From: a virus
DNA length: 64,000 bases
Strand: one strand, 5' to 3'
IMG/VR virus record: IMGVR_UViG_3300028831_000378
Span: 1-64,000 of that record
A model generated the notes under the pieces. It saw only the letters and a list, made by a program, of their open reading frames with translations, was not told the DNA's origin and did not search any database. Below are positions 10,625 through 62,912 of the stretch, in pieces (position 1 is the first letter of the stretch; each line of letters starts with the position of its first letter). Position numbers and translations under genes: made by a program.

Positions 10625-12532
10625 GTGGCTACTCGGGTACGGCCGCGGCGGGCGCGGCGGGAGGATGGATTCGACTTCGCGGCAGCGGTCGACGGCGAGT
10701 GGCAGCTCGGCGAGGAGGAACGCGCCGTCGAGCGTCGGTCGATGATGGAGTACGCGGAGCTGATGCCCGAGCCCGGCGTGGGCGCGCTGCGGTTCGAGGA
10801 CTTCCCGTTTCAGGTCGGGTGGTATGCCGACGAGGTAGCGGACGCCGAAGAGGTCGTGTTCGCGAAGGGCGCGCAGGTCGGCGCGAGCGGGATGGGGGTG
10901 CGGTGGTGCATCCGGCAGGTCGATCAGTTCGGCGACACGGGCCTGTACGTGATGCCGACAGACGAGGTGGTCGAGAAGTTCGGCGACGAGCGCGTCGAGC
11001 CCGCGATCGAGGAGAGCCCTTATCTCCAGTCGCGGATCCGGCCGAAGTGGGTGCGGAACAAGCATCTGAAGCGCATCGGCCGGGCGTTCCTGCATATGCG
11101 CGGCTCGAACTCGAAGGCCGGCGCGCAGTCCGTCGCGGCTCAGTTTCTCTTTCTCGACGAGCGCGACCTGCTCGATCAGTCGAACCTGCCGATGATCATG
11201 CGGCGCGTGTCGGGCGCCCGGCAGCTCGGGAAGACGCCGAAGGTTCGTCACGCCGGCTATCCGCTGATCCCGAACGACGGGATCGACCTGCTGTGGCAGC
11301 AGTCGGACATGCGCGTGTGGCACGTCGTCTGTGATCGCTGCGGCGACGAGCAGCCGATCACGTGGGAAGAGAACGTGCGGTGGACGACGCCGGGGTTTCA
11401 CGAGGGCGAGCGCGAGGGCCAGGAGCACGGCGACGCGTCGCTGCCGCTGCGGGTGATGCGGCCGGGCTCGGACGCGCACGACGATCGCAAGGCGATCGAC
11501 GCGGTGTGGCGGCAGTGCCGGTCGTGCGAGGCGTCGTTCGAGGACTCCGGGCCGGGCAAGCGCGACGGGGTGCTGCGCAAGGGCCGATGGATCGCGCAGC
11601 GGCCGGGCGCGTCGCTGATCGGCTTTCACGTGTGGCGCGGGATGGTGCCCGTGACGGATCTCGTCGAGATGGTGCGGGCGTCACGGTCGACGAAGGACAT
11701 CGAACGCGAGCTGTTCTCCGCGCTCGATCTCGGGCGCCCGTACGCGTCGGGCGAGTCGTCGCTGACCGATGACGTGCTGATGCGCGCGTGCTCGTTCGGG
11801 ATCAATCGCCTGGATGCGTACTACGGGCCGAACCCGACGACGATGGGTGTCGACGTCGCCGGCGAGCGTGACCTGAACGTGTGGATCGACGAGCAGCTAC
11901 CGGCGGAGATCGAGGGGGTACCGAATCCGCGGCAGGCGCTCTGGATCGGGCGGTGCGCGACGTTCGAGGAGGTCGTGCGGCTGATGGAGCTGTTCCGGGT
12001 GCACGTGTGCGCAATCGACTCGAACCCGGAGCGGCGGATGGCGAAGGCGCTGCGCGCGACGTTCCCGGGCCGTGTGGTGCTCGTCGAGTACGACCATAGG
12101 TGGCTGTCGGAGCCGCTGAAGTTCGAGGCCGATCCGGAGGGGATGCCGCTGAAGGTGCGGGTGAATCGGACGGACGCGATCGACGGGATGATGGATGCGA
12201 TTCGGCAGGTGCGCTCGCGGCCGTTGCGGACGCCGCCGGCCGGCTGGATGGCGCAGATGAAGAGTCTGCACCGGCGCACGATCCTGAACACGAAGGGGTT
12301 GCCGGAGCGCGAGTACGTCACGACGGGCACGGACGGCGACGACTATGGGCACGCGGCGGTGTACGCGCTCGTGGCGACGGAGTTGTGGCGGATGTTCATC
12401 CGGTCGCAGGCGCAACTCGCGCAGGCGCGCGGCCAGCATGTCCCGGACGAGGAGATGGGCTTTCGGCGGGTGCGGCTGTCGGACTATGGTTCGGCGGAGA
12501 GTTGGCGGCCGGGTCTTCGGGGCTACGAATGA
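10625..12532 (+). CDS. terminase large subunit (GpA-like)
   Basis: 635 aa. FPFQVGWYADE..VVFAKGAQVGASG (GpA-type ATPase N-terminus). Internal CDRCGDE...CRSCEAS zinc ribbon. C-terminal nuclease-size domain. Confidence 0.8.
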   Translation: MATRVRPRRARREDGFDFAAAVDGEWQLGEEERAVERRSMMEYAELMPEPGVGALRFEDFPFQVGWYADEVADAEEVVFAKGAQVGASGMGVRWCIRQVDQFGDTGLYVMPTDEVVEKFGDERVEPAIEESPYLQSRIRPKWVRNKHLKRIGRAFLHMRGSNSKAGAQSVAAQFLFLDERDLLDQSNLPMIMRRVSGARQLGKTPKVRHAGYPLIPNDGIDLLWQQSDMRVWHVVCDRCGDEQPITWEENVRWTTPGFHEGEREGQEHGDASLPLRVMRPGSDAHDDRKAIDAVWRQCRSCEASFEDSGPGKRDGVLRKGRWIAQRPGASLIGFHVWRGMVPVTDLVEMVRASRSTKDIERELFSALDLGRPYASGESSLTDDVLMRACSFGINRLDAYYGPNPTTMGVDVAGERDLNVWIDEQLPAEIEGVPNPRQALWIGRCATFEEVVRLMELFRVHVCAIDSNPERRMAKALRATFPGRVVLVEYDHRWLSEPLKFEADPEGMPLKVRVNRTDAIDGMMDAIRQVRSRPLRTPPAGWMAQMKSLHRRTILNTKGLPEREYVTTGTDGDDYGHAAVYALVATELWRMFIRSQAQLAQARGQHVPDEEMGFRRVRLSDYGSAESWRPGLRGYE

Positions 12533-14753: not shown

Positions 14754-14797
14754 GATCATCGGGTTATCCTCTCGGGCTGACCCGAGTTCCGAGGAGG
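14754..14797 (+). promoter_or_regulatory. early-type promoter/operator plus leader, copy 2
   Basis: Dyad GATCAT-cgg-GTTATC at 14754-14768. TATCCT at 14765-14770. CTCGGG at 14771-14776 is inverted relative to gACCCGAGT at 14779-14787. GAGGAGG at 14791-14797 and ATG at 14803. Confidence 0.55.
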
Positions 14798-17929: not shown

Positions 17930-18150
17930 TCGAGGTGCAGATACCGGCGAGTGTGGAGCCGGCCGCGCTCGATCAGATCAAGGCCATCGCGAAGGCGCAT
18001 CCGGGCGAGCACGAGTTGCGGATCGTGCTCGTGAGTTCGAGGAGGATCGCCGGCGCGATGGTGCTCGGGCCGGAGTGGCGTTGCGATGGCGGCGCGCTGT
18101 GCGTGGCGCTGCTGGCGGAGTTCGGCGGGGTCCGGTTGCAGACGGGGTGA
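17926..18150 (+). CDS. hypothetical protein
   Basis: ATGA overlap. Its stop lies inside the next promoter dyad. Confidence 0.55.
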   Translation: MIEVQIPASVEPAALDQIKAIAKAHPGEHELRIVLVSSRRIAGAMVLGPEWRCDGGALCVALLAEFGGVRLQTG

Positions 18151-18197
18151 TAACTGCGCTATCGTGCGGCGTCTACCCGAGTTTGCGACATTGGAGG
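18149..18197 (+). promoter_or_regulatory. early-type promoter/operator plus leader, copy 3
   Basis: TTGCAG at 18136-18141 (-35-like, 18-nt spacer). Dyad GATAAC-tgc-GCTATC at 18149-18163. TATCGT at 18160-18165. TACCCGAGT at 18174-18182. GGAGG at 18193-18197 and ATG at 18202. Confidence 0.55.
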
Positions 18198-21625: not shown

Positions 21626-22030
21626 ATGGCTCGTGTGTTGCAGCGGATGAAGCGGCTGCTGACGCTGGTGTCGCTGCTGCTGGCGTTCTTCGGTGTGAAC
21701 GTGGCGAAGAAGCTCCCGACGCCGGCGTCGGTTCTCGGCAGCTTGCCTGGCGCGGTTGCGCCAGCGCCGGCGCCACCTCCGGCGTTGCCGGCTGTCGCTC
21801 CGCCGGCGGTCGTTCCGCCGGCGCCTGCGGCTCCGCCGGCGCAGGCCGGTCCGGTGAAGCACGTCATTTCGTCGTGTGCGACGGGTGATGGCTATGACGC
21901 GGCGGGGCATCGCGTCGGCGTGTACGCGGTGTGCGTGGTCGATGGGATGCAGATGAACATCGGGACGTGGCCGAATCACGATCAGGCGATGGCGGGCATC
22001 CGCGAGTTCCGGCGGGTGCACGGCAAGTAG
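21626..22030 (+). CDS. secreted or membrane-anchored Pro/Ala-rich protein
   Basis: GGAAGAGG RBS then ATG 21626. Signal/TM segment LLTLVSLLLAFFGV, followed by a PAPAPPPALPAVAPP linker. Confidence 0.6.
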   Translation: MARVLQRMKRLLTLVSLLLAFFGVNVAKKLPTPASVLGSLPGAVAPAPAPPPALPAVAPPAVVPPAPAAPPAQAGPVKHVISSCATGDGYDAAGHRVGVYAVCVVDGMQMNIGTWPNHDQAMAGIREFRRVHGK

Positions 22031-22057
22031 CGCGAGCACGTCGTTCTGCCGGGCTGA

Positions 22058-22081
22058 CGGGCCGTCCTTCGGGGCGGCCCG
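22058..22081 (+). terminator. stem-loop terminator
   Basis: GGGCCG-tccttcgggg-CGGCCC after stop 22028-22030, followed by gTTcgcgTTcgggTT. Confidence 0.55.
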
Positions 22082-22095
22082 TTCGCGTTCGGGTT

Positions 22096-22136
22096 GATCA
22101 TCGTGTTATCATGTGTCGTACCCGAGTTGAAGGAGG
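22096..22136 (+). promoter_or_regulatory. early-type promoter/operator plus leader, copy 4
   Basis: Dyad GATCAT-cgt-GTTATC at 22096-22110. TATCAT at 22107-22112, then 6 nt, then TACCCGAGT at 22119-22127. GAAGGAGG at 22129-22136 and ATG at 22142. Confidence 0.6.
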
Positions 22137-32540: not shown

Positions 32541-32585
32541 GATCACGCTGTTATCGTCCGGGCTCTACCCGAGACGACGAAGGAG
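32541..32585 (+). promoter_or_regulatory. early-type promoter/operator plus leader, copy 5
   Basis: Dyad GATCAC-gct-GTTATC at 32541-32555. TATCGT at 32552-32557. TACCCGAG at 32566-32573. GAAGGAG at 32579-32585 and GTG at 32594. Confidence 0.55.
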
Positions 32586-48549: not shown

Positions 48550-49344
48550 ATGCGAGGAGGCGATGGCGTGGATCTAAGGGTGCTGCATCGCGGGGGGCGT
48601 AGCGAGGCGGCGCGCAGGGTGCAGGTCGCGGTGAACCGCCGGCTGCATTACTGCGGGCTCGATTCGCTGGCGGTCAAGACGGACGGGGTGGTGGGGCCGG
48701 CGACGCTGCTGGCGGTGCGGAAGGCGGCGTGGTCGCTCGGCGCGATGAAGAGCACGCTGGACAAGATCGTCTCGCAGGGCGAGGTGCCGATCGGCGTGCA
48801 GCGCATGATCCTGAGCCCGGGGAAGCGCACGGATCGGCAGAAGTCGCTCGGGAAGCGCCGGGTAGCGGCGATGCGCGCGATGCGCAAGCGGCGTGTTCGC
48901 GACGCCGGGTCGGAGTCGGCGAAGCGCCGTGCGATCTGCTCGCGCGCCAAGCAGGCGGCCGCGAACTACCGTCGCGAGCCGGCGGCCTATCACTACCTGG
49001 CGGGCGGCACGGCGAACACGGTCTATCTGCGCCCGACGCCGCGGCATTGGCGCTCGGACTGCTCGCAGTTCGCGGCGGCGGTCTACAAGGACGCCGGCCT
49101 GCCATCGCCCGGGGACGTCTCGTACGAGTGGGTGAACACGTGGGCGATCGACCGTAAGGGTCGCGTGACGAAGCATCCGAAGCCGGGTGATCTCGGGCTC
49201 TACGGGCCGAAGGGCAACCCGCATCACGTGGAGGTCTACATCGGCGAGCCGGGCTGCATGTTCATCGGGCATGGCTCGCCGCCGATCGACAGCGTGACGC
49301 CGGGCCTGCCGAGCTATTACGTCACGTTCGACTTTCTGGACTGA
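48550..49344 (+). CDS. endolysin: PG-binding domain plus NlpC/P60 peptidase
   Basis: N-terminal RRVQVAVNRRLHYCGLDSLAVKTDGVVGPATLLAVRKA. C-terminal RSDCSQFAAAVYKDAGL...GDLGLYG...HHVEVYIG (Cys/His). An alternative start is GTG 48568. Confidence 0.75.
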   Translation: MRGGDGVDLRVLHRGGRSEAARRVQVAVNRRLHYCGLDSLAVKTDGVVGPATLLAVRKAAWSLGAMKSTLDKIVSQGEVPIGVQRMILSPGKRTDRQKSLGKRRVAAMRAMRKRRVRDAGSESAKRRAICSRAKQAAANYRREPAAYHYLAGGTANTVYLRPTPRHWRSDCSQFAAAVYKDAGLPSPGDVSYEWVNTWAIDRKGRVTKHPKPGDLGLYGPKGNPHHVEVYIGEPGCMFIGHGSPPIDSVTPGLPSYYVTFDFLD

Positions 49345-49356
49345 GAGGAGTTGGCG

Positions 49357-49578
49357 ATGGGAGACGAGTCGTTCGATCCCGCTGGGGCGCCGGAGGGCTT
49401 CACGCTCGCGGCGGAGGCGGCAAGGCAGGACGAGGCCGCGGCGTCGGGCATCACGGAGCGCGACGCGGTGGAGGAGCCCGACGACGACGCGTTGGATCCC
49501 GCCGACGAGTCCGGTGACGCGGACGACGACGAGGAGGTCGACGACGAGGACGACGACGCGCCGGTGGAGGACGTCTAG
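49357..49578 (+). CDS. highly acidic small protein (73 aa)
   Basis: GAGGAG RBS then ATG 49357. C-terminal DPADESGDADDDEEVDDEDDDAPVEDV. Confidence 0.55.
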   Translation: MGDESFDPAGAPEGFTLAAEAARQDEAAASGITERDAVEEPDDDALDPADESGDADDDEEVDDEDDDAPVEDV

Positions 49579-49839
49579 ATGGGCGTGCTGCGCGGCGATC
49601 GTCCGGATCTGACGCCGGCGCAGCTCGCCGGCGCCGTGCCGGTGCTCGCGAACCTCGCGAACGCGTTCGGGGTCTTCCATCTGAGCGTGCAGCAGACCGA
49701 CTCGCTTCAGCAGACGATCCTCTACGCATCGACGCTCGTCGTCGCGGACGCGGCGGTGCGCTTCGCCCGCAACGCGAAGGACGCGAAGGTGGAGGCGGCG
49801 GGGCTCGCTGTCGCTGCTCGGGTGCCACCGGCGACGTAG
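49579..49839 (+). CDS. hypothetical protein, possible holin or membrane-associated lysis protein
   Basis: ATG directly after TAG. Hydrophobic stretches AGAVPVLANLANAFGVF and ILYASTLVVADAAV. Assigned mainly by position in the lysis cassette. Confidence 0.45.
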   Translation: MGVLRGDRPDLTPAQLAGAVPVLANLANAFGVFHLSVQQTDSLQQTILYASTLVVADAAVRFARNAKDAKVEAAGLAVAARVPPAT

Positions 49840-49871
49840 TTTTCGGGGCGCGGAGGGGGTATCATCGCCCG

Positions 49872-49971
49872 TACGGCCGAGCGATTGCCTCTTCGTGCGA
49901 CTCGGGTAAAGTGGCCGGAGCCACCGCGAAGCCGCACACAAGGGCCGTCCCTCGGGGCGGCCTTTGTTGTT
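49872..49971 (+). ncRNA. candidate ~100-nt small RNA carrying the anti-leader box ACTCGGGTA
   Basis: TATCAT at 49860-49865, then 6 nt, then TAC(GG)CCGAG at 49872-49881. Three stem-loops: TAC..CCGAG/CTCGGGTA (49872-49908), GTGGC-cgga-GCCAC (49911-49924), and the terminator. No RBS or credible ORF. Confidence 0.4.
49941..49971 (+). terminator. intrinsic terminator
   Basis: aGGGCCG-tccctcgggg-CGGCCtt stem followed by TTTGTTGTT. Confidence 0.65.
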
Positions 49972-50027
49972 CCCGGCCGATCAGCGCGTTATCTTCCCGG
50001 GGGTCCGACGTACCCGAGTCGAAGGAG
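49967..50027 (+). promoter_or_regulatory. early-type promoter/operator plus leader, copy 6
   Basis: TTGTTC at 49967-49972 (17-nt spacer). Dyad GATCAG-cgc-GTTATC at 49979-49993. TATCTT at 49990-49995. TACCCGAGT at 50011-50019. GAAGGAG at 50021-50027 and ATG at 50028. Confidence 0.55.
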
Positions 50028-51377
50028 ATGGCGCTGATGGCTGGAGAGCTTGTCGTAATCCCGGAGGAGGAGCGAAACCTGCGGGGCCTGGAGTTGGCGG
50101 AGGTTCATTTCCCGCCGGAGCGGCGCGCGCAGGTCGCGCAGTTTCTCGACATCCCGCCGGAGTCGCCGGCGCTACTGCCCTATCTGGCGCTCTGCGCGTC
50201 GCTGAACCTCTCGCCGGTCTTCGGGCACGTGTGGCTGATCCCGAAGAAGATCAAGCCGGTCGCGGCGAAGGACGGCGAGCCGGCGCAACCGGCGCGCGTC
50301 GTCTACAAGCCGGCGATAGGGCGCGACGGGCTGCTGCACAAGGCCCGCGAGACGAAGGGCAAGCGCGGCGGCTACAAGGGCATGACGTACGACGTCGTGT
50401 GCGAGCACGACACGTTCGAGGTCGAGCGCTCGATCGACCCGAACAAGCCGCCGATGGTGATCCATCGGTACGCGTCGAAGCCGACGATCTTCAAGGCCGG
50501 GGAGGCGCCCGATCGCTACCGGGGCCGGATCATCGGGGCGTGGGCGTGCTGCTACATCGACGGGGAGCCGCCGCACTTCTACTACGCGAATCTGCGCGAG
50601 CACTCGCGGCTGCGGCAGGTGTGGGACTACAACCCGAACGAGCGCCAGCGCAAGCCGCTGTTTTATGACGCTGCGGGGAAGGCGACGTGGGCGGAGTTCG
50701 ACGGCAAGGGCATCCGCCACAAGCCGATGCAGGAGTTCGAGGGCGCGTGGGACTACACGTCCACGATGGTCCTGAAGGCCGCGCAGTCCTACGTGCTGCG
50801 CATCGGGCTCGGGATCACCGGCGTCGTGCCGGTCGACGAGCTGCGCGACCCGCGCGAGTGGCAGGGGCTCGACGAGCCGCAGCATGGCGCGCTGGCCGAC
50901 GAGCCGCCGACGTTCGACGCTCGCGAGTTCACGGACGATCCCGCGCTACAGACGCGCCTGGCCGATGCGGTCGGCGTTGCGAACGAGTTGGATCCGTTCG
51001 CGTGGGCGGCCGCGAAGTGCCAGATGGTGATGGCGAACCGCACGGACGGCGAGCTGGTGGGCATCGTCGAGCAGATCGAGAGCGAGAACGAGCTGCGCCA
51101 GCAGCGCGCGGATGCCGCGAAGGCCGAGCCCGTCATCGAATCCGATGCCGTGGAGGAGCCCGAGCCGCGTCGCGCGGACGATCCCGCCGCGGAGACGGAG
51201 GTGCGTGCCGAAGTCGATCAGGAGCATGTCGATGTGCTCCGCGCGCGGCTGGCCGATCTCCGTGGCCGGCGGATGGCCGCGACGGAGGAGCAGCAGGGCG
51301 AGATCGTCGCGGAGTTGGATCAGATCGAGGCTGAGTTGCGTGGGCTGCTCGGGCTCGAACCTGGCGCTGACGTCTAG
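50028..51377 (+). CDS. recT: RecT-like single-strand annealing protein
   Basis: ATG after leader copy 6. PALLPYLALCASLNLSPVFGHVWLIP...YKPAIGRDGLLHKA is the RecT core. Acidic C-terminal tail. Confidence 0.7.
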   Translation: MALMAGELVVIPEEERNLRGLELAEVHFPPERRAQVAQFLDIPPESPALLPYLALCASLNLSPVFGHVWLIPKKIKPVAAKDGEPAQPARVVYKPAIGRDGLLHKARETKGKRGGYKGMTYDVVCEHDTFEVERSIDPNKPPMVIHRYASKPTIFKAGEAPDRYRGRIIGAWACCYIDGEPPHFYYANLREHSRLRQVWDYNPNERQRKPLFYDAAGKATWAEFDGKGIRHKPMQEFEGAWDYTSTMVLKAAQSYVLRIGLGITGVVPVDELRDPREWQGLDEPQHGALADEPPTFDAREFTDDPALQTRLADAVGVANELDPFAWAAAKCQMVMANRTDGELVGIVEQIESENELRQQRADAAKAEPVIESDAVEEPEPRRADDPAAETEVRAEVDQEHVDVLRARLADLRGRRMAATEEQQGEIVAELDQIEAELRGLLGLEPGADV

Positions 51378-51386
51378 TCTCGCGCC

Positions 51387-52733
51387 GTGACCGTTCGAGT
51401 GGTGCCGCGGGAGCCGATCCCGCTGGAGGATGTCGCGCGCCTGTTTCCGCGGGTGCGCCAATCGCTGCTGTCGACGTTCGATGACTGCGCGCTGTCGTCG
51501 TACTTCGAGCTGAAGTTCGCGGCGGGGTGGAGCACGCATCCGCAGGCGCGCGGGATCATCTTCCATCGCTTCGCGGCGGCGGTGATGCGCGAGCTACAGG
51601 CGACGCAGAAACGCACTATCCCGGTGCAGCTCGCGGAGCAGATCCTCGTCGAGCAGTGCCGGCAGCACGACGTCGAGCCGCGAGACATCGTTCGGGTGCC
51701 GTTGCGGCAGATGGCCGAGTTGCGGATGGCGGCCCGGAAGTTCGCGAAGGACAATGAGTTCTCGTGGGAGAAGATCGTCGCGGTCGAGCGGCGGTTGACG
51801 GCGCCGATCGCCTACCCGAAGCCGGGCGGTGGGTTCGTGATCCGCGAGCTGTCGGGGCAGATCGACACGCTGCTGTGGGATGCGCCGGACGGCGCGATCG
51901 TGATCGACTGGAAGGACACGTGGGCGCTGCCGCCGGAGCCGAAGGAACGCGACCCGGGCGACTACGTGGGCGAGGATGACGAGTTGCGCGGCATCAGCTA
52001 CCACGGCTACTTTCAGCAGCGGTTCTACGGGTGGCTGGTGATGAAGAACTACAGCAACGTGAACCGCGTGACGCTGCGCGAGTTCTACGGCCGTAAGACG
52101 AAGGTTCGCAAGGCGACGTTGACGCGCGACCGGATGCCGGAGGTGGAGGAGGAGTTGTCGATCCTGATCGAGGCGTTCGATCGAGCTGTCGCGGCCGGCG
52201 CGCCGGCATGGCCGATCGGGTGGTTCGACGCGTTCGATCCGGACACGGGTGAGGTGCTGATCGACGAGGAGACGGGGCAGCCGCAGCGCGTGCTCGACAT
52301 TGAGCGGCTGGGCGTGTGGAAACCGCAGCCGGGTAAGCACTGCGGGTTCTGCGCGGCGTCGCGGTTCTGCCCGGTCGACGAAGACACGCGGATCGAGGCT
52401 GGTGGCGCGATCACGTCGTGGGAGGCCGCGAAGCGCGCGACGGCGGAGCTACAGGTCGTCGAGCGGGTGCGGCAGGTTCTCCTGAGCGCGCTGAAGGGCT
52501 TCGTCGAGACGCAGGGCAGGCCGATCCCGGTGAAGTCGTCGAAGGGCCGCCGGATGCTCGGGTGGTACCAGACGAAGCGGGGCCGGCGGTTCGGGCTCTA
52601 CACGCCGGACGCGTCGGATCGTGGTGGGCATCCCGATCTCGATCGCCAGCTCGAAGAGGCGATGCGGGAGGCGACAGAGCGCGCGCTCGCGGCGAAGCCG
52701 AAGCGGCGGCACCGGAAGGCCGGGAAGGTCTAG
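51387..52733 (+). CDS. PD-(D/E)XK (RecB/Cas4-like) exonuclease
   Basis: GQIDTLLWDAPDGAIVIDWKDTW (D...D/E-x-K). C-terminal Cys cluster KHCGFCAASRFCPV. Confidence 0.65.
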   Translation: MTVRVVPREPIPLEDVARLFPRVRQSLLSTFDDCALSSYFELKFAAGWSTHPQARGIIFHRFAAAVMRELQATQKRTIPVQLAEQILVEQCRQHDVEPRDIVRVPLRQMAELRMAARKFAKDNEFSWEKIVAVERRLTAPIAYPKPGGGFVIRELSGQIDTLLWDAPDGAIVIDWKDTWALPPEPKERDPGDYVGEDDELRGISYHGYFQQRFYGWLVMKNYSNVNRVTLREFYGRKTKVRKATLTRDRMPEVEEELSILIEAFDRAVAAGAPAWPIGWFDAFDPDTGEVLIDEETGQPQRVLDIERLGVWKPQPGKHCGFCAASRFCPVDEDTRIEAGGAITSWEAAKRATAELQVVERVRQVLLSALKGFVETQGRPIPVKSSKGRRMLGWYQTKRGRRFGLYTPDASDRGGHPDLDRQLEEAMREATERALAAKPKRRHRKAGKV

Positions 52734-58354: not shown

Positions 58355-59896
58355 CTACGCGGCGGCCTGCTGCGGCGCCGCGTACTCCTCCGCCAGCGCC
58401 GCGATCTCGTCGTCTGAGACGTACACAGCTCGGACGGCGACGATCCCGCGTTTCTTGTCGTTCCACGCGAACCCGCGGCCCGGCTGATCGCGCAGGATCC
58501 GGTCGCACCGGATGCCGCTCGCCGCGGCGCCCTGCCAGAACATCATGTCCGTGTACTGCGCGGACAGCAGCCGCAGCGCGATCCGGTCCGGGATCTCGTC
58601 GCGCATGTCGACGACTTCCTTCCGCGGATTCTGGAGCGCGCCTAGCAGCGTGATCCCGACAGCGCGGCCCTTGTTCACGAGGAGCGTCGTCGCCATCTTG
58701 CACTCGTCGGCGATGTCCTTCGCGGCCTTCGCCTTCGACTCCGGGACCATGATCGACGCGAACTCGTCGATCATCAGCAGGATCAGCGGCTCGTCGATCG
58801 TGGGGACGTGCTGGCGCGTGGACTCCTTGTACTTCTGAGTGCGCGCGTTCATCTCCGTCACGAGGTCGGCGAGCATGTCGCGCATGTCCTTCGGCGTGCT
58901 GTCGCAGTAGCGCGTGTAGAGCGGGAAGCCGCGATACAGCTCCATCCCGCCCTTCGGGTCGATCGCCCATACCTGCACGAGGCCGTCGCGGATCGCGGGC
59001 GCCAGTCCCTTCAGGACCGACCACAGGATCGAGCCCTTCCCCGATCCGGTGAGGCCGGCGACGAGGATGTGCGAGCCGTGCAGCTTCAGCGTCCAGCGTT
59101 CGCCCTGCTCGGTCCGACCGACCGGGATGGCGCCGAAGTCAACGTCTGCGGTCGACTCCGGTACGGGGATCGCGGGTAGCGACTCGCTGAGGACGTCCTT
59201 TGTCGCGAACTCCATCACGATCTGGCCGGGGATGCGCTGGCCGCCGGCGTGCTTTCCCCACGCGAGCCGGCGCCGGCCCACGCTGTCGAGGATCCACATG
59301 AGCCGCAGCAGGCGGCCGGGGTCGCTGTAGCGCGGGTAGACGCGGCAGGACTGAGCGCCGAAGGCTTCAGCGAACGCGTCGACCCGGCGTTCGTACATCT
59401 CGACGGTGTGCGCCGCGAGCATCTTGACCTGCAACGTGTGACCGAACGGGCCGACGATCACCTTCCGAATCTTCGGCACCTTGTCGCGCCGGTGCTCCAA
59501 GGGAACGGTGAGCATGTTCTCCTGCATCTCTTCGTGCCACTTACGGGCGTAGACGCGCCGGGCGACCCACCACGGCCGTAGCCACGAACCGATCCAGCGT
59601 TCCCACGAGCCCCACCGTGCGATCCATTGCGCCCATCGCCGGCGCGGCCGGCGGAAGAAGCCGGAGCACCACGCGAACGTCCACCACGCGGAGACGAAGA
59701 CCACGACGTCGATCCCGAGCCCGATCGCAGTGCGCGGTCCGAAGAGCACGACGAGCGCGCCGGCGAGCACGATCGCGAGGGCGCGCTGCGGGAACCACCA
59801 CGCGTAGAGCACGACGAGCACGATCGTCTGCACGAGCCAGATGACGGGAACGACGATCCAGTCGCCGATACTCACGAGCGTCCCCTCCGAAGCCAC
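58355..59896 (-). CDS. FtsK/SpoIIIE-family (TraB-like) DNA translocase ATPase with N-terminal TM segments
   Basis: Walker A GLTGSGKGS and Walker B LLMIDEF. Three to four N-terminal TM helices. GTG start. Converges on rusA with only a 2-nt gap. Confidence 0.8.
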   Translation of the reverse strand: MASEGTLVSIGDWIVVPVIWLVQTIVLVVLYAWWFPQRALAIVLAGALVVLFGPRTAIGLGIDVVVFVSAWWTFAWCSGFFRRPRRRWAQWIARWGSWERWIGSWLRPWWVARRVYARKWHEEMQENMLTVPLEHRRDKVPKIRKVIVGPFGHTLQVKMLAAHTVEMYERRVDAFAEAFGAQSCRVYPRYSDPGRLLRLMWILDSVGRRRLAWGKHAGGQRIPGQIVMEFATKDVLSESLPAIPVPESTADVDFGAIPVGRTEQGERWTLKLHGSHILVAGLTGSGKGSILWSVLKGLAPAIRDGLVQVWAIDPKGGMELYRGFPLYTRYCDSTPKDMRDMLADLVTEMNARTQKYKESTRQHVPTIDEPLILLMIDEFASIMVPESKAKAAKDIADECKMATTLLVNKGRAVGITLLGALQNPRKEVVDMRDEIPDRIALRLLSAQYTDMMFWQGAAASGIRCDRILRDQPGRGFAWNDKKRGIVAVRAVYVSDDEIAALAEEYAAPQQAAA

Positions 59897-60309: not shown

Positions 60310-60831
60310 TCAAGGCGCAGCGACGAGCCGGTAGCGCTGGCCGTTGCAGTAGGGGCGGAGCTGTCCGCCCATGCTTGCGCCCTGCGCGCCGTTCGGGCGA
60401 GCGGGGACGTACCGGATGTCCGCCGCGTTGGTCGAGCGGCCCTCCGCGGGCGGGTACTCGTCGCGCGCCTTCCCGGGCCGCGTCTTCGTGACGCCGGCGA
60501 GCCGAAACGCGGCCTGTCGGCGCTGGTCTTCGCCGGTGTCGTTCTTCACGAGCACGACGGGCCAGCGCTTGCCGTCATCGACGATCGTCTTCCCGTCGCT
60601 GAGCGTGTTGCGGCCGTGGCGAGCATCGACGATGTGACGCCAGTTGTCCGGGTACTTCGACACGGACACACGAATCGGTATGACGCGATCGGGTTCGCAT
60701 CGTGAGTAGCCCTCCGCGTGAGCGGCCGCCATCTTCGCACGGGGACTCTCGAACTGCGCCCAATACCACGAGTAGGCGAACGAGCCGGCGAAGAAGAGGA
60801 CGACGAGGCGCGCGCGCAGAGAGAGCCCCAT
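60310..60831 (-). CDS. NucA/NucB-like DNase with N-terminal membrane anchor or signal
   Basis: GGGAGGG RBS then ATG 60831. TM segment LRARLVVLFFAGSFAYSWYW. ARDEYPPAEGRS...IRYVPARPNGAQGASMG matches the DNase_NucA_NucB DEYPfA...N..qG core by eye. Confidence 0.6.
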   Translation of the reverse strand: MGLSLRARLVVLFFAGSFAYSWYWAQFESPRAKMAAAHAEGYSRCEPDRVIPIRVSVSKYPDNWRHIVDARHGRNTLSDGKTIVDDGKRWPVVLVKNDTGEDQRRQAAFRLAGVTKTRPGKARDEYPPAEGRSTNAADIRYVPARPNGAQGASMGGQLRPYCNGQRYRLVAAP

Positions 60832-62498: not shown

Positions 62499-62912
62499 TT
62501 AGCTGCGCTGGTGGGCGCCGGGGTTTGCCACGGGGTCTTCGTCGTACAGGGCGACGAGGCCGGAGCCGGCGAGGTCGGCGCGCCAGTAGCCGTTTGGCAG
62601 CAGCTCGACGCGGCGTGCGGTGGTGGGGCGGCCGCGGTAGCGGACTGTGCAGTGGGTGTAGGTGGTGGGCGCTGGCGTGTCGTCGAGCTGGAGGCGCATG
62701 TCGAGCTGGTAGAGCTGCTGTGCGAGGAGGTCGCGAAGTTGTGTCTGCGCCTGGGCGAACTGCTCGTCGGTCATGCGGTAGCCGTTGGCGTGCGCGACGC
62801 GGCACAGCAGGGACTCGGCGGCGTCGTCGGCGAGGCTGGCGGAGTTGGCGTCGCGTTGGGCGACGGGAATCGAGAGCGGCATGGTGATCTCCGTGATGGG
62901 TGACTCGGGCAT
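62499..62912 (-). CDS. hypothetical protein, first gene of reverse cassette (leaderless start candidate)
   Basis: ATG 62912 lies 6 nt after a minus-strand TATCAT (62919-62924) and begins ATGCCCGAGT. An alternative is ATG 62882, preceded by GGAG. Confidence 0.55.
   Translation of the reverse strand: MPESPITEITMPLSIPVAQRDANSASLADDAAESLLCRVAHANGYRMTDEQFAQAQTQLRDLLAQQLYQLDMRLQLDDTPAPTTYTHCTVRYRGRPTTARRVELLPNGYWRADLAGSGLVALYDEDPVANPGAHQRS

Follow-up and report, generated by a model that had tools for sequence, protein, structure and literature searches.

A conserved non-coding element between the lysis and RecT genes of a high-GC phage is a candidate antisense small RNA for leaders that share a 5'-terminal box

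The window analyzed here is a stretch of 64,000 nucleotides (nt), positions 1 to 64,000 of IMG/VR virus record IMGVR_UViG_3300028831_000378, a phage-like genome with a GC content of 70.8% and nearly every gene on the + strand; its host is a high-GC organism, probably actinobacterial. Between the lysis genes and the gene for a RecT-family annealing protein lies an element (49857-49971) made of a promoter-like hexamer, a long hairpin and an intrinsic terminator. The element is real, conserved and non-coding, and it most likely acts, as far as comparison of sequences can tell, as RNA. Our interpretation, held with somewhat more confidence than doubt, is that it would be a small RNA (sRNA) that base-pairs with messenger leaders carrying a common box and represses their translation. 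The features of the locus are collected in Table 1.

Table 1. Features at and around the element; positions are those of the window
Feature	Position	Strand	Remarks
Tail and baseplate genes			Upstream of element
NlpC/P60 peptidase	48550-49344		Upstream of element
86-aa protein with hydrophobic stretches, putative holin-like			Upstream of element
Weak -35-like T-rich patch TAGTTT (putative)	49837-49842	+	17 nt 5' of the -10
GGG + TATCAT, putative sigma-A-type -10 of small RNA	49857-49865	+	TATCAT at 49860-49865
Predicted small RNA, about 100 nt	49872-49971	+	Predicted 5' end +/-2 nt; 3' end in U-tract
Anti-Shine-Dalgarno CCUCUUC	49888-49894	+	5' of stem P2 and partly inside P2
Upper hairpin	49891-49931	+	Per-sequence minimum-free-energy folds
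Stem P2	49891-97 with 49925-31		CUUCGUG paired with CGCGAAG
Anti-box CGACUCGGGUA	49898-49908	+	Complement of leader 50011-50021
Stem P3	49900-02 with 49910-12		ACU paired with AGU
Apical loop CGGGUAA	49903-09
Small hairpin GUGGC-cgga-GCCAC	49911-49924	+	-7.4 kcal/mol, z=-1.98; overlaps 3' strand of P3
Intrinsic terminator	49938-49971	+	13-bp GC-rich stem (49938-49967), loop CUCG, tail UUUGUUGUU
RecT operon promoter/operator GATCA-N5-TTATCTT	49979-49995	+	-10 TATCTT at 49990-95
Proposed target: box UACCCGAGUCG and Shine-Dalgarno AAGGAG of RecT mRNA	50011-50027	+
RecT-family annealing protein	50037-51377	+	Pfam RecT 3.4e-07, PHROGs; first gene of operon
PD-(D/E)XK exonuclease	51387-52733		After RecT; Pfam PDDEXK_1 1.1e-12, PHROGs
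DnaC-like loader, RusA			Downstream of element
Further box leaders (possible extra targets)	592-600, 14779-87, 18174-82, 22119-27, 32566-74	+
17-bp operator-like motif	569-585, 14754-14770, 18149-18165, 22096-22112, 32541-32557, 49979-49995		At the six box promoters

The comparison rests on 13 closer relatives, namely 12 contigs recovered through their RecT homologues and one IMG/VR contig, with RecT 91% to 52% identical to that of the window; with the window they make up the 14 sequences referred to below, and about 60 further RecT homologues lie outside the set. Scans of metagenome contigs matched only three distant loci, and scanned genome contigs held no relative of the region. The distant relatives with readable upstream sequence (L017, L019 and L021) have RecT 31-34% identical. 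The unit was found in 13/13 closer relatives and in the three distant ones, where it precedes RecT or whichever gene comes first past the terminator. Every relative found has kept it, and better than the flanking genes: the window shares 98% identity with L003/L004 in the element, 74-82% in the upstream gene and about 91% in the RecT DNA. In the closer relatives the order is lysis-gene stop, 15-27 nt (the gap from the stop to the -10 is about 150-190 nt in L011 and L012), G(G)TANNNT, long hairpin, GC-rich terminator, operator/promoter, box, Shine-Dalgarno sequence (SD) and start codon, and the hairpin contains CCUC or a variant pyrimidine tract, then 2-9 nt, then RCUCGGGUAA. The distant relatives keep this layout with a different box. 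In L011 the unit stands after an amidase gene, with two small genes separating it from RecT, and in L014 an open reading frame (ORF) of about 500 bp with HNH-like motifs (about 1075-1560) lies between the terminator and the RecT promoter; it resembles a homing-endonuclease-type insertion placed where the two units meet. As insertions separate the unit from RecT in both phages, close linkage in cis is dispensable.

The promoter-like part begins with a -10 hexamer whose T, A and last T are invariant in 14/14 sequences (TATCAT, TAGCAT, TACGAT, TAGGAT, TAGACT or TAACAT), directly preceded by a G-rich stretch to give the consensus G(G)TANNNT; the distant relatives read TAGACT (L021), TATGCT (L019) and TATACT (L017). 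An invariant T, A and T around a variable middle would be the signature of a selected sigma-A -10, as in actinobacterial promoters. At a constant spacing of 17 nt all 14 also have a T-rich hexamer (TAGTTT, GGCTTc, GGTTTc, GGTCAc or GGACAg), which in the window overlaps the stop codon of the upstream gene. The distance from the -10 is 7-10 nt to the base of the 5' hairpin (14/14) and 27-42 nt to the anti-box, the segment complementary to the leader box, and in close relatives the substitutions are concentrated between the -10 and the predicted +1 and cease at +1. The element would be transcribed from this promoter of its own. The original prediction had recognized TATCAT followed after 6 nt by TACGGCCGAG at 49872-49881, which direct reading confirmed, and had seen in it the geometry of the early promoters; the -10 is indeed shared, but the element lacks the GATCA-N5-T half that all six leader promoters have, and conservation does not extend to the degenerate box that follows.

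Minimum-free-energy (MFE) folds from the predicted +1 to the U-tract give, in 14/14, a long 5' hairpin and then the terminator. At the apex of the hairpin CGGGUA(A) is wholly or largely unpaired in all 14 and in 12 is itself the apical loop, closed by RCU/AGY; the exceptions are L006, whose fold pairs the first GG of the motif, and L011, with one isolated pair inside the loop. Pairing in P2 is kept despite differing sequences (UCGUG/CACGA, UCGUGC/GCGCGA, UCGA/UCGA, CGUAAGG/CCUUACG), P3 varies among A-U, G-U and G-C, the anti-SD tract lies within the internal loop 5' of P2, and P1, the outer stem, varies. Part of the anti-box falls in an internal loop in the three distant relatives. The internal stems P1-P3 rest on these per-sequence folds. 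At such a GC content, z-scores of folding energy are no guide to the 5' domain and reach significance only in L006, L010 and L001.

This fold replaces part of the earlier picture, in which a first stem (49872-49908) sequestered the anti-leader. That stem is unstable (-9.6 kcal/mol, z=+0.22), does not appear in the MFE fold of the whole RNA, and lacks its 5' arm CCGAG in L013, L001 and other relatives, while the conserved fold displays the anti-box in the apical loop. The second predicted stem, the GUGGC-cgga-GCCAC hairpin, is real (z=-1.98) but restricted to the window and its closest relatives L003, L004 and L005, being missing in L013. The predicted terminator stands: with -25.2 kcal/mol and z=-6.26 (0/200 shuffles as stable) it joins a GC-rich hairpin to a U-rich tract at the end of the unit, its tail reading TTTGTTGTT in DNA letters, and the alignment of relatives shows compensatory changes at 9/12 consensus pairs. 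A simple terminator scan missed it because a G interrupts the U-tract.

No coding function is apparent, in agreement with the view that the gap has no ribosome-binding site and no credible ORF. The ORFs overlapping the element are mechanical only, none is preceded by an SD, and the spacing between the complementary cores varies among relatives (96-579 nt) by non-multiples of 3, so no reading frame is conserved. The doubt cast on a RecT start at 49911 was justified; comparison with the relatives places the conserved start at ATG 50037, neither at 49911 nor at 50028. A cmscan of the window against Rfam found nothing at gathering thresholds and, at E<=10 on 49800-50060, only four sub-threshold chance matches to unrelated families. 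The same segment doubles as the 3' end of the late/lysis operon transcript.

The anti-box (CGACTCGGGTA at 49898-49908 in DNA letters) is the complement of an unbroken 11-nt run in the RecT leader (50011-50021), and within it ACTCGGGTA (49900-49908) is the exact reverse complement of the leader box TACCCGAGT; both had been predicted and both proved correct on direct reading. An exact 11-nt complement between the 100-nt element and the 35-nt leader arose in 0.03% of 20,000 dinucleotide shuffles (P=0.0003). What the original prediction overlooked is that the complementarity runs past a short bulge into the SD, through CCUC at 49888-49891. A pyrimidine tract directly 5' of the upper stem is present in 14/14, mostly as CCUC and otherwise as CCUU (L015), CUCCUUC (L012) or UCUC (L016), and its bases complement GGAG/GAGG in the SD downstream. 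It is this complementarity of CCUC to the SD that points to translational repression.

When the reverse complement of the anti-element is set against the leader of the same phage, the window gives UACCCGAGUCG-cac-GAAGAGG versus UACCCGAGUCG-AAGGAG and L001 gives ACCCGAGCCGCAcGAGGA versus ACCCGAGCCGCAgGAGGA, matching at 17/18 positions. The two strings are the same in L016 (CCCGAGCUUGA), L009 (GUUUACCCGAG) and L021 (CACCACCCGAA); L011 has UAUCCCGAgCC..GAGGAUC versus UAUCCCGAaCC-GAGGAGGAUC, and L017 has GUCACCC...CGGAAGGAAG versus GUCACCC...CGGAGGAAG. Cofolding formed the heteroduplex of box and anti-box in 8/10 phages, with a gain of -3.6 to -20.9 kcal/mol, and the leaders at 18174 and 22119 were among the 8 best duplex partners of the anti-region in about 10,600 windows. 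A second exact ACTCGGGTA, at 10631, is not part of the system and falls in codons 3-5 of the terminase gene (GTG GCT ACT CGG GTA). In the IMG/VR relative L023 (about 2861-2876) the codons homologous to this terminase start (window 10625-10640) are ATG GCT ACC CGA GCG and thus box-like; the synonymous flip between anti-box and box lies in coding sequence and is probably a coincidence, though an odd one. We also rejected a minus-strand gene behind the inverted leader, which has no promoter and a nearest start codon at inconsistent distances, the start codon being absent in the window, L001, L010 and L014.

Anti-box and adjacent leader co-vary across phages; TACCCGAGTCG, ACCCGAGCCGCA, CCCGAGCTTGA, TATCCCGA and CACCACCCGA are examples. 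In the distant lineages the box is different (CACCACCCGA; GUCACCC) and the anti-box tracks it, and in L011 the anti-box fits UAUCCCGA, the variant box belonging to the gene that comes next downstream. The longest exact match averages 9.5 nt with a phage's own leader versus 7.9 nt with the leaders of other phages (permutation p<5e-5), and the duplex energy is -30.1 versus -26.6 kcal/mol (p=0.00075). In an ungapped alignment of 16 phages anchored on the invariant CGGG/CCCG, both sides change in 13/18 intermolecular pairs (shuffles 9.3+/-1.2, 0/500 reaching 13), and 29 cells are compensatory, where shuffles give 17.2 (0/500) and a shift of the partner column by 1-3 gives 10-16. These counts support pairing but should not be read as probabilities, because the sequences are related and the anchoring was chosen on that invariant core. 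Since the element is conserved, and since its exposed bases match the leader and change along with it, a small antisense RNA is the most likely explanation. The comparative data strongly support the predicted non-coding RNA of about 100 nt that would depend on pairing with the leader box.

Exact copies of the box stand on the + strand at 592, 18174, 22119 and 50011; those at 14779 and 32566 have one mismatch. All six leaders have the same layout, GATCA/GATAA-N5-YTATCNT, 6-15 nt, (T)ACCCGAG(T), SD and start codon. A 17-bp motif, GAT(C/A)(A/G)-N5-(T/C)TATCNT, overlaps the -10 at each of the six promoters; it is also found 5' of 9 leaders in relatives, where it comes close to a palindrome, and its perfect palindrome in L010 (GATAG-N5-CTATC) suggests an operator overlapping the -10. 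To judge from these copies, the motif looks like the operator of a dimeric phage regulator governing six or more operons. Directly 5' of GATCA, three of the six promoters carry an inverted partial box, (C/T)(T/G)CGGG(G)T (560-568, 18141-18148, 22087-22095), which was found at none of nine promoters examined in relatives. Two terminator hairpins of the window are near-identical, gggccgtccttcggggcggccc at 22060-22085 and gggccgtccctcggggcggcc at 49944-49966, and both lie directly upstream of a box promoter; only the latter has an anti-leader hairpin before it, no anti-element being present at the other terminator-promoter junction (22030-22127). Each locus has one copy of the anti-element, on the + strand.

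We propose the following course of events, for which we infer the ends of the transcript, its action in trans and the sign of the regulation. Host RNA polymerase would start about 7 nt past the sigma-A-type -10 TATCAT and stop at the intrinsic terminator, which would make 49857-49971 a small-RNA gene. Its promoter is without the operator-like GATCA-N5-TTATC of the phage's other promoters, so the RNA would be made independently of the early-promoter regulator. The RNA of about 100 nt would form the long 5' hairpin, with CGGGUAA exposed apically and CCUC in the internal loop below, and these two patches would pair with the 5'-terminal box (UACCCGAG...) and the SD of the RecT-exonuclease-replication mRNA, which would start about 40 nt downstream of the terminator. 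Through the shared box and SD it would probably pair with the five other box leaders as well, and it may act in trans on all six leaders. The loop would contact the 5' end of the mRNA first, and pairing would then spread to the SD and block 30S binding; the expected outcome would be repression, possibly followed by cleavage of the duplex. Such an RNA could set a threshold for translation or enforce a late shut-off.

Several points weigh against this proposal. The RNA is a prediction from sequence and folds for an uncultured phage, and INPHARED phage GenBank records, searched in near and distant modes, gave no relative of the region. A sigma-70 consensus scan reported no promoter at the element, whose -35 is poor. 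In the window, the 5' domain is no more stable than its shuffles (z about 0), and column-wise co-variation of P1-P3 was not obtained, because the register of P2 shifts by 1-2 nt between lineages and the 3' halves cannot be aligned, so that a covariance model of the upper hairpin was abandoned. In the cofolds of L013 and L006 the sRNA's own fold beats the heteroduplex, and a duplex-energy scan of the window is unspecific at this GC content, several non-leader sites equaling the leaders. The kinship and anchoring behind the shuffle counts belong here too, and so does the fact that the co-variation fits pairing in cis as well as pairing in trans.

Pairing in cis is accordingly the first alternative to be weighed, although we consider it unlikely. 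According to this explanation, the anti-leader acts only in transcripts that read through, from the late/lysis operon or from the TATCAT promoter, where it would reach across about 110 nt to pair with the leader and SD of RecT and sequester the ribosome-binding site; RecT would then be translated only from mRNAs made at its own promoter. Besides the co-variation, it would account for a RecT promoter that lies between the complementary arms in every phage, for the inclusion of the SD in the complementarity, and for arms that are usually 74-138 nt apart. Against it, every phage has a very strong terminator (z=-6.3 in the window) separating its arms, which would leave little read-through in need of silencing. 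Moreover, a purely cis mechanism would have no need of a conserved -10 or of a conserved local hairpin with the anti-box in its loop. In L011 and L014 inserted genes put 209 nt and 579 nt, respectively, between the arms, and five other leaders bear the same box far from the element.

A site acting as DNA, with box and inverted anti-box as operators for a phage DNA-binding protein and possibly DNA looping around the terminator and promoter, appears improbable. The box does occur at six or more promoters beside a palindromic operator-like motif, three window promoters have CGGGT directly 5' of GATCA, and the base after GAG is the same in a genome's leaders and in its anti-box (T in the window group, C elsewhere). 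Yet the complementarity extends over phage-specific spacer bases (TCG, CCGCA, CTTGA) and the SD, which a protein operator would not need; relatives do not keep the extra inverted CGGGT copies; the spacing from box to -10 varies from 6 to 15 nt; and there is a single anti-copy per locus, always framed by -10, hairpin and terminator. The protein site as first suggested fares no better, since it needs the inverted CCGAG/CTCGG pair, of which the 5' half is not conserved.

We give marginally less credence still to a positive or protective role, in which pairing of the RNA would stabilize, activate or titrate the leaders, as a sponge does. Pairing at the extreme 5' end of the mRNA would suit such a role, as a duplex there could hinder 5'-end-dependent RNases such as RNase J and RNase E; however, the conserved anti-SD would occlude the ribosome-binding site, and the leaders showed no inhibitory structure that would have to be opened. 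Finally, a compound terminator with a chance match to the leader is very improbable and runs counter to the comparison of phages: alignment folding of the full element (MAFFT and RNAalifold) does recover the terminator alone and the 5' domain of the window is not unusually stable, but this leaves the co-variation unexplained, with P=0.0003 for the window match by itself, anti-box and anti-SD conserved and co-varying across 16 phages, and no such element at the other terminator-promoter junction of the window (22060-22127).

The genes around the element place it at the boundary of two blocks. Relatives encode an amidase, lysozyme or peptidase at the position corresponding to the window's lysis genes, and the element therefore follows a lysis cassette and closes the late block. 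Between the NlpC/P60 peptidase and the putative holin-like protein lies a gene (49357-49578) for an extremely acidic 73-aa protein with a D/E run at its C-terminus and without family match. Elsewhere, the only minus-strand gene block of the window (58355-59875, 60310-60831 and 62499-62882, all -) encodes an FtsK/SpoIIIE-like ATPase. No tRNA genes were found in the window, and neither an integrase nor a repressor among about 45 window proteins scanned.

If the preferred interpretation of an antisense sRNA is true, the phage would have a simple threshold or shut-off at the level of translation for a whole class of operons, in a distinctive design with the RNA gene at the boundary of late and early operons and its target motif repeated genome-wide. 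It would be a new antisense sRNA family, outside Rfam, with unusually clear evidence of co-evolution of RNA and target, on the already known theme of phage antisense repressors. To our knowledge, regulatory RNAs are almost unknown in phages of high-GC bacteria. Neither mycobacteriophage nor Streptomyces phages are mentioned in a review of phage sRNAs from 2025 (PMC12197685).

In its proposed action the RNA resembles c4 of P1/P7 and sar of P22. One of the closest known cases is c4 (immI), a short phage RNA whose loop sequences pair around the ribosome-binding site of the target and block translation (PMC12197685). Like c4, the RNA proposed here is encoded just upstream of its target without overlapping it; there is no homology of sequence or structure (no Rfam match even at E<=10). 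The c4 RNA is processed from the transcript that also carries its target, whereas here a terminator and a separate promoter lie between RNA and target, which argues against co-transcription, and the target motif is the 5'-terminal box of several operons. P22 sar and lambda OOP, small RNAs that each have a promoter and a terminator to themselves, pair with a phage mRNA and reduce the expression of a regulatory or early gene (PMC12197685). In contrast to these overlapping, opposite-strand antisense RNAs, the element lies on the strand of its target, to which it is complementary through an inverted copy that selection maintains. In phage T4 gene e, early read-through transcripts hide the ribosome-binding site and late transcripts start inside the hairpin. 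As in T4 gene e and soc, there is an upstream anti-SD arm with the gene's own promoter between the arms: the promoter at 49979-49995 lies between 49888-49908 and 50011-50027, and all relatives have the same order. Unlike T4 gene e, the element has a strong terminator between the arms, and its upstream arm comes with a -10 and a loop-presenting hairpin.

Cluster K mycobacteriophages offer a further parallel, which is not homology and is a lead rather than a result. They have a conserved motif, the start-associated sequence (SAS), that includes or abuts the SD before many non-structural genes, often with an inverted-repeat promoter element, ESAS, ahead of it, a system still without an explained function; in Adephagia 16 SAS share one strand and just one copy is inverted (PMC3203893, PMC11373665). 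The 13-bp SAS motif GGGATAGGAGCCC is absent from the window, which has one 2-mismatch match, on the minus strand, where 1.13 are expected by chance. We found the inverted SAS of Adephagia (loop sequence GGCCUCCUAUCCC) in the 26-nt loop of a perfect 9-bp hairpin, GTCGACCAG...CTGGTCGAC, in the 430-bp gap between gp92 and gp93 (L024, JF704105, 30560-30720, that is 58559-58719 of the record). The hairpin region is a conserved, mostly unannotated intergenic stretch common to 179 Cluster K phages, among which the stem co-varies; about 100 nt upstream of the Adephagia hairpin stands an invariant TAGACT, two other conserved hairpins are also upstream, and no U-tract terminator follows it. In Unicorn and in Amgine, which nevertheless retains SAS, the anti-SAS is degenerate, and Keshuvirus has none. 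On this evidence the reverse SAS of Adephagia is possibly an anti-SAS RNA or a structured 5' untranslated region of gp93. A broader idea, rather doubtful, would make the one sRNA a genome-wide translational governor that reads the 5'-terminal box and SD of all operator-controlled operons and has co-evolved with them across phages with RecT about 31% identical; the same logic, with many leader motifs and a single inverted copy shown in a hairpin loop, would then explain the orphan reverse-oriented SAS of Cluster K, a puzzle since 2011. The comparison offers a testable hypothesis for SAS and ESAS in Cluster K phages, which are cultivable and for which RNA-seq already exists.

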